From a virus (taxonomy: Duplodnaviria > Heunggongvirae > Uroviricota > Caudoviricetes), in IMG/VR virus record IMGVR_UViG_2534681978_000024: 4,302 bases of DNA, one strand, 5' to 3'. Of the stretch, positions 1 to 4,302 are shown one piece after another. A program made the position numbers and the translations under genes. The stretch's first letter is position 1. Each line of letters begins with the position of its first letter. The notes beneath the pieces are model-generated. The model was given only the letters and a program-made list of their open reading frames with translations. It had not been told where the DNA came from and ran no database searches.

Positions 1-38
1 GTATTTCGAGAAGGGGCTTGCAAGCTGAGTTAACAGAA

Positions 39-1097
39 ATGAAAACGGGGCTGGTGCTGTCCGGCGGCGGGGCGGTGGGCGCTTATCAGGCGGGAGTGGT
101 TAAGGCACTGGCAGAGTGTGGGGCACAGATCAGTATGGTTTCAGGGGCCAGTATCGGGGCTCTCAATGGTGCCATTATCGCGGCTTCTCCCGATTTGTCA
201 GAAGCTGCCGCACGCCTGGAGGCGCTCTGGGAGCATCTGGGGAATAATCAGGTGCTGTCGGTAAACCGATCGGTTTACTTTTCATTGCTGAAAAAATTGT
301 TCCAGGCAATGAACCTCTGCCAGATCCCCGGACGTGCAGGAGTACTGCTTACGACGCTTTTTCGCCATATATCGACAATCAACGGGTTCGAAAATCTGAT
401 GACTCAGCCGTTGTTGTCAGATGAGCCCCTGACAGCGCTGATGGATCATTATCTTGATACTGATGCTCTGGCAGACGGGCTACCGCTGTATGTGTCGCTG
501 TACCCCACAGAAGGAGGCATGCAGGATATTATTGACTGCATTCGTGCTGAACTGGGTGCCGGAACCACGAAAAACGCCGTTTTTCAGCATATCCAGAGCC
601 TGCCCCGCGGACAGCAGAAAGAGGCTCTGCTTGCGTCAGCCGCACTGCCCCTGCTGTTCCGTCCCCGTGAAGTTCAGGGAAAAATGTACGGTGATGGTGG
701 TATGGGAGGATGGCGAAATATGCAGGGAAATACCCCTGTAACGCCTCTGGTCGATGCCGGATGCAATATGGTGATTGTGACACATCTGAGTGACGGTTCT
801 TTATGGGATCGCCAGGCTTTTCCGGACACCACAATCCTTGAGATCCGTCCCCGGAAAAGACTGAAACATGCAGGTGATGGTGGCAACAGCGGCGGTCTGC
901 TCAGTTTTACATCGGCACATACCGACGCCTGGCGTCAGCAGGGCTATGAAGACACGATGCTGACGATGGAGCATATCCGGAAACCGCTGGCAGCACGTCA
1001 GGCACTGACCCGGTCAGAAACGGTGTTGCAGAAAAGTCTGGAGAAAACGGAAGAGGCAGATTCGGCACTGAGAAACGCGATGGCCCGACTTAAATAA
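39..1097 (+). CDS. Patatin-like phospholipase (serine lipid hydrolase, patatin/PNPLA family); start taken as ATG at 39, the ORF track starts at TTG 18 and the frame is open to the window edge
   Basis: Seen in translation: glycine-rich oxyanion loop GLVLSGGGAVGAYQAG close to the N-terminus, nucleophile elbow G-A-S-I-G (GxSxG, Ser codon agt at 150-152), and catalytic Asp in YGDGG (gat at 693-695). This trio is the established signature of the patatin Ser-Asp dyad fold. Single long ORF of 359 codons, with a roughly 100-residue C-terminal region lacking recognisable motifs. No strong Shine-Dalgarno before either candidate start. Confidence 0.85.
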   Translation: MKTGLVLSGGGAVGAYQAGVVKALAECGAQISMVSGASIGALNGAIIAASPDLSEAAARLEALWEHLGNNQVLSVNRSVYFSLLKKLFQAMNLCQIPGRAGVLLTTLFRHISTINGFENLMTQPLLSDEPLTALMDHYLDTDALADGLPLYVSLYPTEGGMQDIIDCIRAELGAGTTKNAVFQHIQSLPRGQQKEALLASAALPLLFRPREVQGKMYGDGGMGGWRNMQGNTPVTPLVDAGCNMVIVTHLSDGSLWDRQAFPDTTILEIRPRKRLKHAGDGGNSGGLLSFTSAHTDAWRQQGYEDTMLTMEHIRKPLAARQALTRSETVLQKSLEKTEEADSALRNAMARLK

Positions 1098-1113
1098 AGA
1101 CGCTCCGGAGAAA

Positions 1114-1139
1114 CGCCACCGCCTGTGGTGGTGTTTTTC
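1114..1139 (+). terminator. Weak candidate intrinsic terminator downstream of the phospholipase gene
   Basis: Short imperfect GC stem (gccacc ... ggtggt, about 5-6 bp) followed by a T5 run at 1135-1139, 17 nt after the stop codon at 1095-1097. The stem is short, so this is tentative. Confidence 0.35.
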
Positions 1140-1148
1140 TGGCTGGTG

Positions 1149-1160
1149 TTATTGAAAATA
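1149..1160. repeat. Left copy of an 11/12-identical direct repeat (ttattgaaaata) at the left edge of the AT-rich cassette
   Basis: ttattgaaaata at 1149-1160 versus ttactgaaaata at 3116-3127. Each copy sits immediately after a terminator T-run and at the point where base composition switches between GC-rich and AT-rich. Confidence 0.4.
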
Positions 1161-1225
1161 TTTTCAGATATATATTACCTGGACGATGGTTAAGATTAAT
1201 TTATTTAATTTTGGAGAGAAAACTC

Positions 1226-1684
1226 ATGAAACTGTTAAACATTCTTTTATCTGTTGTTTTAACTGTAAGTGCAACCGTCGCACAAGCAGAATCGGCATTG
1301 TGGAAGCGTAACAGTGTTGCCGGAACTGATATGTTCAGTATTGGTAATGTTTCTATTAACTGCACGACTAATCCAGAAGACAACAATTTGCTACCGCACT
1401 ATGTGTGGATTTACGGTCATACCCCCACCCCGCTAAATCAGTACGATTCTGATATCATTTTTATCATCAACGGTAAAGAGTATCCGGTCCCACCTGTCGA
1501 CGGAACACGAATGAATGAGAACAAATGGGTACACTTTATCGATGCTATCGGTGAAGCCACGAAGTTCGACGTTTTAGTAAACGGTAAGAAAGTCGACAGC
1601 TATACCACAAATATCAAAAATGTGAAAAAGACTTTGGGTAACAAATTCTACGGCAGTTGCTGGAGCACCTGGTTCCAGGAATAA
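1226..1684 (+). CDS. Hypothetical small secreted/periplasmic protein (about 152 aa precursor with N-terminal Sec-type signal peptide)
   Basis: ATG at 1226 preceded by Shine-Dalgarno GGAGAG (1213-1218, 7-nt spacer); the ORF track begins upstream at TTG 1211, but ATG 1226 with this RBS is the likelier start. N-terminus MKLLNILLSVVLTVSATVAQA-E has a positively charged n-region, hydrophobic core and AxA cleavage motif. Mature part about 131 aa with two Cys. AT-rich codon usage. No family recognised. Confidence 0.75.
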   Translation: MKLLNILLSVVLTVSATVAQAESALWKRNSVAGTDMFSIGNVSINCTTNPEDNNLLPHYVWIYGHTPTPLNQYDSDIIFIINGKEYPVPPVDGTRMNENKWVHFIDAIGEATKFDVLVNGKKVDSYTTNIKNVKKTLGNKFYGSCWSTWFQE

Positions 1685-1809
1685 TTGATAACGTGGTGTA
1701 AAACACCTCAGTTTAATTTAATACAGTGAGTGAAAATGAATATCATAAAAATATTTTCTGCTTCAGATGTCACATATTTTATTAACTGAATGATTAACAG
1801 GAGAATCAG

Positions 1810-2349
1810 ATGAACTGGCATTATGAAAAAAATGGTGTACGTTATGATAACGTAACAGAGGAAGATATTATTGAACGTATCCGCCGTGGTGAACTGAATG
1901 CATCAACACTGGTGTGGCAACAGGGCATGCTGGAATGGCAGCCAGTTTCAGCCACATCACTGGCGGAAATACTGAAACAAAGTGAAGTTCCTCCGGCCCT
2001 TCCGGGTCACCGCATTCCCGGAGGCGTTGTCTGGACGCTGGCATTTGCCCCTTTGATTGGATACATACTTGAGATGTGGACTGCCGGGCTGAACGGTATG
2101 TCATTTGAACGGGCTTATGATGCAGTCAGCGAAGGCCAGTACTGGTTTATCTCTCTGATTCTGAATATTGCTCTGGGATATCTGGATGAACGAAAACTCC
2201 GTAAATCTGGCGTGGATACCACAGCATTTGGCTGGCTGGCATGGTTGATCCCGGTTTATCTGTGGCGTCGGGCAAAAATCCTCGGGCAAAAACCTGCTTA
2301 TTTCTGGGTCTGGTTGGTTATGCTGATACTGGTGTTATTTACGGTCTGA
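1810..2349 (+). CDS. Membrane protein: N-terminal GYF-like (DUF4339-type) soluble domain fused to about four predicted transmembrane helices
   Basis: ATG at 1810 with Shine-Dalgarno AGGAG (1799-1803, 6-nt spacer). N-terminal roughly 50 aa (NWHYEKNGVRYDNVTEEDIIERIRRGELNASTLVWQQGMLEWQPVS) match my recollection of the bacterial GYF-like/DUF4339 consensus (W-x-Y ... NG ... TLVW-x-x-GM-x-x-W-x-P). C-terminal half has four hydrophobic stretches (VVWTLAFAPLIGYILEMW, YWFISLILNIALGYL, AFGWLAWLIPVYLW, AYFWVWLVMLILVLFTV) separated by charged loops. Confidence 0.8.
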   Translation: MNWHYEKNGVRYDNVTEEDIIERIRRGELNASTLVWQQGMLEWQPVSATSLAEILKQSEVPPALPGHRIPGGVVWTLAFAPLIGYILEMWTAGLNGMSFERAYDAVSEGQYWFISLILNIALGYLDERKLRKSGVDTTAFGWLAWLIPVYLWRRAKILGQKPAYFWVWLVMLILVLFTV

Positions 2350-2455
2350 TATTCTTTATCGCAGAGTTTACTAAATAATCAGGTTATTAGTGTTCTTAAC
2401 AGGTAAATGATGTTCATCATGGAACGGATATATTTTATTTGATTCAGGAGACAGT

Positions 2456-2604
2456 CAGAAACATAGTATAAATATATCGCCATGTTGAAGGTCATATCTT
2501 CAGGTATTTGTTTAATAAACAAGTCGGGGGTTAATCCTGACCTCTCGAGTGGATTATAAGTATTGCAGAAACAGTTTTTATACTTTTATTTAATATCAGA
2601 AACA
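2456..2604 (+). repeat. Three direct copies of the octamer CAGAAACA in the intergenic region upstream of the 2619 gene (candidate regulator-binding repeats)
   Basis: CAGAAACA at 2456-2463, 2566-2573 and 2597-2604, the last copy abutting the Shine-Dalgarno of the downstream gene. Seen directly in sequence; significance not computed. Confidence 0.3.
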
Positions 2605-2618
2605 ATGGAGTAATTATC

Positions 2619-3032
2619 ATGAAAAATATCATCACTATTTTAATGATTGCAGTTATCAGTTTCTTTACTGCTAATGTATCAGCAAACAATGCCGTTCCTT
2701 TACCAACCAACCTGACTGATGTTACTGACGGTACAGAATTCTGGTGTCAGGGTACTGATACTATCGACGGAGGTTGTGAATACCTGGGCACATCCAAAGA
2801 CATGCAATACGGTCTGGTACACGCCATGGGGGGTACAGCGTGCTGGGATGGTTTATACGGCGTAATTAATTTCTATACCGGTAAAGCCCAGACCATCAAA
2901 TACAACAACAATCAAAGTTGTGAAGGCAACATCACCGCCAGTTTCGTTACCCTGAAAAACGGTAAACCGGGCGTTAAACTTTACGACAATACGATTCATA
3001 AGGTTGTCGGGCTTGACGAAATCAAATTTTAA
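2619..3032 (+). CDS. Hypothetical small secreted protein with four cysteines (137 aa precursor, Sec-type signal peptide)
   Basis: ATG at 2619 with Shine-Dalgarno GGAG (2607-2610, 8-nt spacer). N-terminus MKNIITILMIAVISFFTANVSA-NN has a typical signal peptide with VSA cleavage motif. Mature part about 115 aa with four Cys (two possible disulfides). Followed by a strong intrinsic terminator. No family recognised. Confidence 0.8.
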   Translation: MKNIITILMIAVISFFTANVSANNAVPLPTNLTDVTDGTEFWCQGTDTIDGGCEYLGTSKDMQYGLVHAMGGTACWDGLYGVINFYTGKAQTIKYNNNQSCEGNITASFVTLKNGKPGVKLYDNTIHKVVGLDEIKF

Positions 3033-3082
3033 TGTATGAATTATAGTATCTTATCTGCGCGTTATTAATATCAAATGTAAAT

Positions 3083-3117
3083 AAAGCCCCGGCCATTATG
3101 GCAGGGGCTTTATTTTT
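3083..3117 (+). terminator. Rho-independent terminator for the 2619-3032 gene and the AT-rich cassette
   Basis: Hairpin aaagccccggcc / attat loop / ggcaggggcttt: an 11-bp stem with one G-A mismatch (3083-3094 pairing with 3100-3111), followed by a-ttttt (3112-3117), about 50 nt after the stop codon. Confidence 0.75.
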
Positions 3118-3127
3118 ACTGAAAATA
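3116..3127. repeat. Right copy of the 11/12-identical direct repeat (ttactgaaaata) at the right edge of the AT-rich cassette
   Basis: See left copy at 1149-1160. Located at the transition from AT-rich back to GC-richer sequence, overlapping the end of the terminator T-run. Confidence 0.4.
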
Positions 3128-3375
3128 CATGACGGGCTGTACATTACTTTTATTTTCCGAAGACCCTTTCTCACGCAAACAGACAGTTGCTGTCATAACA
3201 GCTTACCGCAATGTGTTTATCCAGGAATGCATTTCCGGCGGATTATCCGCAACGCGGAAGGTCAGCGACGCTGGCGCTGCCGGAATTCTGAACCCGATGT
3301 AGGCAAATAACTTAATGCGTGGCTCACCAGTGAAGGGCTTCCCGGACAATAAACCTCATTCATTTCACCCATCAG

Positions 3376-3406
3376 GCCGCGTCTTCTCCGGGAGACGCGG
3401 CTTTTT
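3376..3406 (+). terminator. Orphan strong terminator-like hairpin with no obvious upstream CDS (possible sRNA 3-prime end, or terminator of a decayed gene)
   Basis: Perfect 9-bp GC-rich stem gccgcgtct (3376-3384) pairing with agacgcggc (3393-3401), 8-nt loop, immediately followed by T5 (3402-3406). + strand orientation (T-run follows the stem; no A-run precedes it). Confidence 0.55.
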
Positions 3407-3442
3407 CATTTATACCGCTTAATCATTCATAAGGAGCAGATA

Positions 3443-4261
3443 ATGCGATTAGCAAGTCGTTTTGGTTATGCGAACCAGATACGCCGTGACCGTCCGCTGA
3501 CACATGAAGAGCTGATGCACTATGTACCCGGTATTTTTGGGGAAGACCGGCATACCTCCCGCAGTGAACGCTATACGTATATCCCCACCATCACCGTGCT
3601 GGAAAGTCTGCAGCGGGAGGGCTTTCAGCCCTTCTTCGCCTGTCAGACCCGCGTACGTGACCCGGGCCGCCGGGAATACACCAAACACATGCTGCGTCTG
3701 CGGCGGGCCGGAGAGATAAACGGAGAACATGTCCCTGAAATCATTCTGCTCAACTCCCATGACGGTACCTCCAGCTACCAGATGCTGCCGGGTTACTTCA
3801 GATTCGTCTGCCAGAACGGCTGCGTCTGCGGTCAGTCTCTGGGAGAAGTGCGTGTTCCGCACCGGGGAAACGTGGTGGACAGGGTCATCGAAGGGGCTTA
3901 CGAAGTGGTGGGCGTTTTTGACCGGATTGAGGAAAAGCGTGATGCCATGCAGTCGCTGGTCCTGCCGCCACCGGCACGCCAGGCGCTGGCACAGGCGGCA
4001 CTGACTTACCGTTATGGTGACGAACATCAGCCCGTCACCACCACTGACATTCTGACGCCACGACGCCGGGAGGATTACGGTAAGGACCTGTGGAGTGCTT
4101 ATCAGACCATCCAGGAAAATATGCTGAAAGGCGGGATTTCCGGTCGCAGCGCTAAAGGAAAACGTATCCACACCCGTGCCATTCACAGCATCGACACGGA
4201 CATTAAGCTCAATCGCGCATTGTGGGTGATGGCAGAAACGCTGCTGGAGGGTATGCGCTGA
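3443..4261 (+). CDS. DUF932-family protein (YfjQ/YafZ-like, conserved in CP4-type prophage and integrative-element cargo regions)
   Basis: ATG at 3443 with strong Shine-Dalgarno AAGGAG (3431-3436, 6-nt spacer). 272-aa ORF beginning MRLASRFGYANQIRRDRPLTHEEL, which I recognise from memory as resembling the E. coli YfjQ/YafZ DUF932 family (not database-verified). Stop TGA at 4259-4261 overlaps a downstream ATG (4261-4263). Confidence 0.8.
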   Translation: MRLASRFGYANQIRRDRPLTHEELMHYVPGIFGEDRHTSRSERYTYIPTITVLESLQREGFQPFFACQTRVRDPGRREYTKHMLRLRRAGEINGEHVPEIILLNSHDGTSSYQMLPGYFRFVCQNGCVCGQSLGEVRVPHRGNVVDRVIEGAYEVVGVFDRIEEKRDAMQSLVLPPPARQALAQAALTYRYGDEHQPVTTTDILTPRRREDYGKDLWSAYQTIQENMLKGGISGRSAKGKRIHTRAIHSIDTDIKLNRALWVMAETLLEGMR

Positions 4262-4302
4262 TGCCTTTCCCTGAAGCGCAGTTCTGACTCATGTCCGTCC
4301 TG

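Follow-up and report, generated by a model that had tools for sequence, protein, structure and literature searches.

The 4,302-nucleotide (nt) stretch of DNA analysed here (hereafter the window; virus record IMGVR_UViG_2534681978_000024, Caudoviricetes) carries, at positions 1149–3127, an AT-rich segment with three small genes, denoted g1, g2 and g3, for predicted exported or membrane proteins. We consider it likely that this segment is a variable slot for small envelope proteins, set within the conserved backbone of an Enterobacterales integrative island of the CP4-57/CP4-6 type, in which genes for membrane or exported proteins would be exchanged independently of one another. A first-pass annotation had read the same segment as a foreign cassette bounded by a near-identical 12-mer that could be the footprint of an insertion; the slot, already annotated, is an ordinary component of an island backbone that is well known.

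The window is matched over its full length in 77 of 5426 complete Escherichia coli genomes, with 99.3–99.4% identity in the 30 best records listed. At the near-identical locus of strain E2 (L001; 99.3% identity) the segment lies in a tRNA-Ser island, which also bears ter genes. The gene order there runs from the ter genes, a GTPase, a dynamin family gene, an RdcB family gene and a patatin-like phospholipase gene through g1, g2 and g3 to a frameshifted DUF905 gene, DUF932, antirestriction, RadC and DUF987 genes, a YeeU antitoxin/CbtA toxin pair, DUF5983, DUF957 and DUF4942 genes, and tRNA-Ser. RefSeq annotates g1 at this locus as a ‘YfjT/YkfB family phage-associated protein’, g2 as a DUF4339 protein, and g3 as a hypothetical protein. 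CP4-57/CP4-6-type backbone synteny was found both in this full order, which ends at tRNA-Ser, and in K-12, O26, M6, Yersinia, Salmonella and Citrobacter, where the same backbone recurs. In generalised form the backbone comprises a GTPase, either dynamin, RdcB and patatin genes or a WYL/YfjR regulator, then the slot, DUF905, DUF932, antirestriction, RadC, DUF987 and CbeA/CbtA. In K-12 CP4-57, the genes yfjP-yfjQ-yfjR-ypjK-yfjS-yfjT stand ahead of the antirestriction, RadC and toxin–antitoxin genes, and the yafY-ykfB-ykfF segment of CP4-6 follows the same backbone order. About 830 further E. coli genomes share only the start of the segment, its first 118 nt in about 200 of them and its first 66 nt in about 627; these are identity-band counts, within which one M6-type genome and three genomes of the 66-nt type were inspected.

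The layout of the segment agrees with its first description. The computed GC content is 0.400 over 1149–3127, against 0.544 in the left flank and 0.548 in the right, such that the claimed AT-rich stretch between GC-rich flanks is confirmed. By part, GC is 0.414 in g1, 0.483 in g2, 0.420 in g3, and 0.28–0.33 in the spacers; the dip is due mainly to the spacers, g1 and g3, and less so to g2 (0.48). The slot has a lower GC content than its backbone neighbours, by 0.03–0.16, in all seven island versions examined (this window included), and low GC is therefore a recurrent property of the slot, or of this class of genes, and not the mark of one recent insertion. The three open reading frames on the + strand, g1 (1226–1684, 152 amino acids (aa)), g2 (1810–2349, 179 aa) and g3 (2619–3032, 137 aa), are each preceded by a GGAG-type Shine-Dalgarno sequence 6–8 nt 5′ of the ATG, and are separated by spacers of 125 nt (g1–g2) and 269 nt (g2–g3), all as had been claimed. 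The same holds for the strong terminator at the end: an intrinsic terminator (3079–3117, + strand) closes g3, with a hairpin at 3079–3115 (−23.8 kcal/mol, z = −5.3). It is kept in M6, UMNK88 and Salmonella, and an Rfam search at E ≤ 1 gave sub-threshold matches only, on this terminator. Terminator-like hairpins on both strands (1099–1143) also follow directly 3′ of the patatin stop codon.

The g2–g3 spacer (2350–2618, + strand; 269 nt, GC 0.31) is as well conserved between the E. coli and Salmonella islands (79% identity) as the flanking coding sequence, and presumably carries the promoter and leader of g3; it has no Rfam match. We considered whether it is a remnant of the extra 145-aa gene found in other genera, which was ruled out as the two have no similarity.

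All three genes are real genes under purifying selection, with ratios of nonsynonymous to synonymous substitution (dN/dS) of 0.075–0.10. The product of g2, the middle gene, is a 179-aa protein with three to four hydrophobic segments and a GYF_2/DUF4339 domain at residues 3–48 (Pfam PF14237; 45.7 bits against a cut-off of 25.8, E = 5e-12), which upholds its first description as a GYF-domain membrane protein. A PF14237 match is present in 17 of 17 aligned g2 homologues. Invariant features include the GYF tryptophans, a PPxL motif (residues 61–64) directly after the domain, and LNxxLxxxDExxLxxxGxxT (residues 118–137) after the second hydrophobic segment. Residues 61–68 read PPALPGHR (window 1990–2010), with PPxL invariant in all 17 homologues and followed by G in most. 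We take this motif to resemble the PPG-type proline-rich ligands of eukaryotic GYF domains, and by that analogy it could mediate self-association or autoinhibition. Homologues of g2 show 64–85% identity across Enterobacterales and 31–47% in Pseudomonas, Acinetobacter, Alcanivorax, Burkholderiales and others; the gene has a dN/dS of 0.075 at a synonymous distance (dS) of 1.14. NCBIfam returned sub-threshold matches only (GltJ, E = 0.004, 16.3 bits against a cut-off of 450), a single-sequence search of Protein Data Bank (PDB) chains gave nothing meaningful, and no phage homologues of g2 were found.

The g3 product is a predicted exported, all-beta protein of 137 aa with cysteines at positions 43, 53, 75 and 101, and belongs to the phage protein family phrog_8968, whose profile it matches over its full length (residues 1–135, E = 2e-37); neither Pfam nor NCBIfam has a family for it. 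Among 1.8 billion representatives, searched exhaustively with HMMER, only 18 relatives came up at E ≤ 1e-3. In the family alignment (A3) C75 and C101 never vary, and most full-length members also have C43 and C53; the dN/dS is 0.098 at a dS of 0.65. AlphaFold2 gave a confident all-beta model, with a mean predicted local distance difference test score (pLDDT) of 80.8, and about 90 outside the leader. A structure search with this model found no convincing PDB match; it did find predicted models of uncharacterised Erwinia jumbo-phage proteins (Foldseek E about 6e-11, template modelling score about 0.73). Full-length g3 homologues of 38–42% identity were recovered by tblastn from 53 phage records (27 of Erwinia, 22 of Salmonella, two of Escherichia, and one each of Proteus and Enterobacteria), and the phage records listed are jumbo phages of approximately 197–251 kilobases such as SPN3US, phiEaH2 and Asesino. 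A signal peptide and all four cysteines are kept in the translated homologue of SPN3US (L015, 4001–4411). The jumbo-phage homologues are all annotated as hypothetical proteins. Their presence suggests that the role of g3 would not depend on long-term residence in a chromosome. A more distant branch is formed by the 145–150-aa genes of Citrobacter, Salmonella, M6 (at the position of g3) and a metagenomic contig, which are homologous to g3 by profile comparison (hhalign probability 98.1%, E = 7e-14); the occupants of the slot are thus diversified paralogues that belong to a small number of exported-protein families. No relation was found between g3 and YfjS.

The product of g1 belongs to the YfjT/YkfB family (Pfam PF27224). 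It is a predicted exported protein of 152 aa that has a cleavable leader and the conserved cysteines Cys46 and Cys145, which are invariant in the YfjT-family alignment (A1). The Pfam assignment was made via P0001, a protein 99% identical to g1 on which PF27224 is recorded, and not by a direct profile match of g1. In BLASTP comparisons, g1 is 31% identical to K-12 YfjT over 142 aa (E = 1e-21), and 34% identical to a Yersinia homologue (E = 4e-27). Its hydrophobic leader spans residues 1–21 and ends in AQA; the N-terminal leaders of g1 and g3 end AQA|E and VSA|N, respectively, in line with the proposal of two signal-peptide proteins in the segment. The dN/dS of g1 is 0.10 at a dS of 1.64. The AlphaFold2 model of g1, built from four close sequences, has a pLDDT of 42.5, and was not used for a fold search. 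Sequence and profile searches of PDB chains gave nothing meaningful for g1 or g3, and NCBIfam gave no match for g1; a profile–profile comparison of g1 with g3 was negative (probability 5%), no relation of g1 to the Salmonella 150-aa protein was found, and no phage homologues of g1 were found. In the UMNK88 island, which has a 96.7%-identical version of the segment, g1 (L017, 378–835) carries a TGG-to-TAG change at codon 26 as well as a frameshift, with g2 and g3 intact. A metagenomic contig (L018, 74–1905) has two tandem YfjT-family paralogues followed by small exported proteins of the M6 type; the g1 homologue on it (74% identity) is linked to these M6-type partners, and not to g2 or g3.

In E. 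coli the three genes are found together in the 77 carriers; outside E. coli they are not a fixed unit. Yersinia has a g2-like gene then a YfjT-like gene, with no g3; Salmonella has YfjS/YafY, a 150-aa gene, a g2-like gene, a g3-like gene and DUF905; Citrobacter koseri has DUF932, a YfjR-like gene, a g2-like gene, a 145-aa gene, a g3-like gene and DUF905; and another island has a g3-like gene without g2. Among 70 species-level loci encoding a g2 homologue, a g3-family gene is present at 28, a YfjT-family gene at seven, and both at only one, in a different order; the 28 g3-bearing loci all fall among approximately 32 close, mostly enterobacterial, g2 loci. These counts make g2 and g3 a recurrent pair and g1 an independent occupant. 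Relatives of g1, g2 and g3 always lie in this slot, in differing combinations.

The junctions between versions of the slot inform on how it varies. In O26:H11 strain 11368, RM14721 and AREA_492, the patatin gene is followed by 340 nt and then DUF932, and the O26 alignment spans window positions 2–1214 and 3231–4291. At this type of site the leader of g1 is kept up to the Shine-Dalgarno sequence, and DUF905 has lost its 5′ half, some ~100 nt; because the leader is kept and the start of DUF905 is missing, such ‘empty’ sites are deletions rather than virgin targets. Strain M6, with homology to the window over 2–1287 and 3038–4276, instead has genes for three proteins of 155, 209 and 150 aa, the first of which is a YfjT homologue with 44% identity to g1. 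The Salmonella island is collinear with the window from exactly the g2 ATG (1810) through DUF932 (1810–4264). From one version of the slot to another, genes have been replaced or deleted, and the junctions fall within conserved leaders and terminators, at gene boundaries or close to them. Judging by this placement, recombination between related islands, whether homologous or illegitimate, is the likely source of variation, rather than site-specific insertion.

The 12-mers on which the insertion proposal was built are present as written: TTATTGAAAATA at 1149–1160 (+ strand), within the conserved leader between patatin and g1, and TTACTGAAAATA at 3116–3127 (+ strand), which comprises the end of the terminator T-tract and the short leader before the DUF905 ATG at 3129. 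They are identical at 11 of 12 positions and bracket the AT-rich region. Such a pair is not clearly exceptional: the window holds 32 distinct direct 12-mer pairs with at least 11/12 identity, against 14.4 ± 4.3 expected from composition-preserving block shuffles; both copies sit in T/A-rich sequence just 3′ of intrinsic terminators. A pair linking both bounding intergenic regions arose in 83 of 2000 dinucleotide shuffles, the narrowest test applied; this is a marginal result, for which the repeat length was picked after the fact.

That a discrete 2-kilobase cassette was put in by a site-specific recombinase, with the 11/12 repeat as target duplication or attachment-site (att) footprint, would account for the existence and position of the repeat, its rarity in the narrowest shuffle test, and the retention of the left 12-mer at empty-type sites. 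We nevertheless regard this as extremely improbable. None of the five homology junctions (1214/3231, 1287/3038 and 1809) coincides with a 12-mer: at the empty-type sites, which had been predicted to hold a single 12-mer, the left copy is indeed kept, but the two junctions are displaced rightward, by 55 nt from the left copy and by 104 nt from the right copy, and, as described above, these sites are deletions. The left copy is found in every kind of version, whether it bears the cassette, an alternative cassette or a deletion. The right copy has not been conserved among related carriers: it reads TTACCTGAAAATA in UMNK88, where it has a 1-nt insertion, and TCAGGTGAAAACA in M6 and TAAAGTAACAGA in Salmonella, where it is degenerate. 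Empty-site junctions away from the 12-mer, and related carriers without the repeat at the right edge, had both been set beforehand as findings that would speak against the insertion, and both were obtained. Further, no recombinase adjoins the slot at the annotated E2 locus, and g1, g2 and g3 are found elsewhere in other combinations and orders. A recombination role for the 12-mer pair is excluded by the comparative junctions, though not by the statistics alone. The repeat-bounded inserted cassette does not stand, and with it goes any new insertion mechanism.

With respect to function, the mobile-element context of g1–g3 is seen directly at the E2 locus, and their envelope location is predicted from leaders and hydrophobic segments. 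The products would act in the envelope for the element: those of g1 and g3 would work in the periplasm, whilst g2 would be an inner-membrane adaptor, the cytoplasmic GYF domain of which would bind a proline-rich partner. The first-pass annotation had raised an accessory module that acts on the envelope and is carried by a mobile element, and this is supported as a general idea. A tentative proposal is that this action most plausibly hinders the entry of competing phages or elements, as a form of exclusion or defence; such a role is favoured because the carriers are mobile, the families diversify by paralogy, and jumbo phages also keep the g3 family. PADLOC gave no match for g1, g2 or g3, and only weak phospholipase-effector matches for the patatin. 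It was correctly noted at the outset that none of the products is functionally characterised, though all have families (YfjT/YkfB for g1, GYF_2 for g2, phrog_8968 for g3); at the level of titles and abstracts, the literature holds no functional study of YfjT/YkfB, DUF4339, YafY/YfjS/YpjK or the backbone gene set.

A toxin/immunity module had also been suggested, in which g1, and perhaps g3, would provide periplasmic immunity against the adjacent patatin, or be orphan immunities against effectors of competing bacteria. In keeping with this, g1-type genes with a conserved leader lie directly 3′ of the patatin gene in both the window island and M6, and the slot holds small, exported, disulfide-bonded and diversified paralogues; small exported diversified paralogues are also seen in immunity-gene arrays. 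The idea is weakened by the separate occurrence of the two partners. The patatin gene is present without g1 in O26, RM14721 and AREA_492, which were inspected, and apparently in the ~627 genomes of the identity band; it is intact in UMNK88, where g1 is a pseudogene; and YfjT-family genes occur without patatin in K-12 CP4-57, Yersinia and other islands. In addition, the patatin protein has no secretion signal or effector-marker domain in Pfam, and the g3 family is present in jumbo phages. Because patatin persists without g1 and YfjT genes occur without patatin, an immunity role of g1 paired with patatin appears unlikely, and we would give toxin/immunity in the wider sense only a small chance.

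The low GC content and very AT-rich spacers could also be taken as signs of decaying acquired DNA, silenced by H-NS and without current function, as could the frequent deletion of the slot, the g1 pseudogene in UMNK88 and the DUF905 pseudogene beside the slot here. This is very unlikely given the dN/dS values of 0.075–0.10 for all three genes, at synonymous distances of 0.65–1.6, and the intact frames, with cysteines and motifs kept across genera and into phages.

Three observations nonetheless weigh against the reading of the segment as an exchangeable slot of functional envelope genes. Most E. coli with the patatin-type island appear to have the slot deleted, UMNK88 carries g1 as a pseudogene, and the 12-mer pair reaches about p = 0.04 in its narrowest test. 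From the first two it follows that the genes are dispensable.

The slot is flanked on its left by the patatin-like phospholipase gene (39–1097, + strand; Pfam Patatin, E = 4e-26), the last gene of a dynamin/RdcB/patatin operon, which may start either with TTG at 18 or with ATG at 39. The dynamin, RdcB and patatin genes (L001, 11725–16090; window 1–1097) are joined by 4-nt stop/start overlaps, which suggests that they form one translationally coupled operon 5′ of the slot; we take this operon to resemble dynamin modules of the LeoABC/RdcAB type. On its right, the DUF905 pseudogene (3129–3310, + strand; ‘frameshifted’ in RefSeq) differs from the intact M6 and Salmonella copies by a 10-nt deletion after TATCCAGGA (alignment A7). 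The end first assigned to the cassette falls 1 nt before the DUF905 ATG. The right backbone flank is the DUF932 (YfjQ/YafZ-like) gene (3443–4261, + strand; Pfam DUF932, E = 1e-52). Approximately 40 nt 5′ of its start there is a 13-base-pair GC-rich hairpin with a T-run (3374–3403), also present in O26 (L003) and M6 (L004), which may be a terminator or attenuator between DUF905 and DUF932.

What this analysis adds is modest: a clearer account of a variable slot that recurs in an island backbone among the commonest in E. coli and related bacteria, together with the distant homology that joins several ‘hypothetical’ exported proteins into one g3 superfamily shared with jumbo phages. The slot genes belong to the uncharacterised ‘y-ome’, and the g2–g3 linkage and the phage homologues give a starting point for work on phage and plasmid entry. 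A bolder combination of these elements, to which we attach a rather low probability, is that g2 and the g3 superfamily form a conserved two-part envelope module of CP4-type islands across Enterobacterales, the periplasmic part of which was borrowed by nucleus-forming jumbo phages, and which implements an undescribed exclusion of phages or elements; g3-type proteins would diversify against invaders, and g2 would relay via its GYF domain to a proline-rich cytoplasmic partner.

Among known systems, phage superinfection exclusion in the envelope is exemplified by Spackle and Imm of T4 and by the lipoproteins Cor and Llp. Superinfection-exclusion proteins are, as we understand them, small signal-peptide or membrane proteins of mobile elements with their own promoters and terminators, and the likeness to the slot proteins is one of kind only; no sequence or fold similarity of the slot proteins to Spackle, Imm, Cor or Llp was detected. 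The exported proteins of SPN3US (for example ACQ60_gp084), phiEaH2 and Asesino are closer, being full-length g3 homologues with the leader and cysteines of g3; they lie among hypothetical genes, and no g1 or g2 homologue occurs in any phage record.

The nearest chromosomal relatives are the K-12 islands. CP4-57 (yfjR-ypjK-yfjS-yfjT) shares with the window island the backbone GTPase, DUF932, DUF905, antirestriction, RadC, DUF987 and CbeA/CbtA genes, and both CP4-57 and CP4-6 have, like the window, small exported or lipoprotein genes of uncharacterised function at the equivalent position. Unlike the window slot, that of K-12 holds the YfjS/YafY lipoprotein and YpjK, with no GYF_2 membrane protein and no g3-family gene; it is placed 3′ of DUF932 rather than 3′ of the patatin gene, and is not AT-rich (GC 0.51). 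The dominant enterobacterial order, found in Citrobacter, Kluyvera, Cedecea, Lelliottia, Yersinia artesiana and others, is GTPase, DUF932, YfjR-like, GYF_2 protein, 145-aa protein, g3-like, DUF905 and antirestriction. It differs from the window in having DUF932 upstream of the slot, no YfjT-family gene and no patatin operon, as well as one more g3-superfamily paralogue, which lies between g2 and g3 at the position of the 269-nt spacer of the window. Nonetheless, the dominant order and the window share a g2 gene (74–85% identity) followed by a g3-family gene directly 5′ of DUF905.

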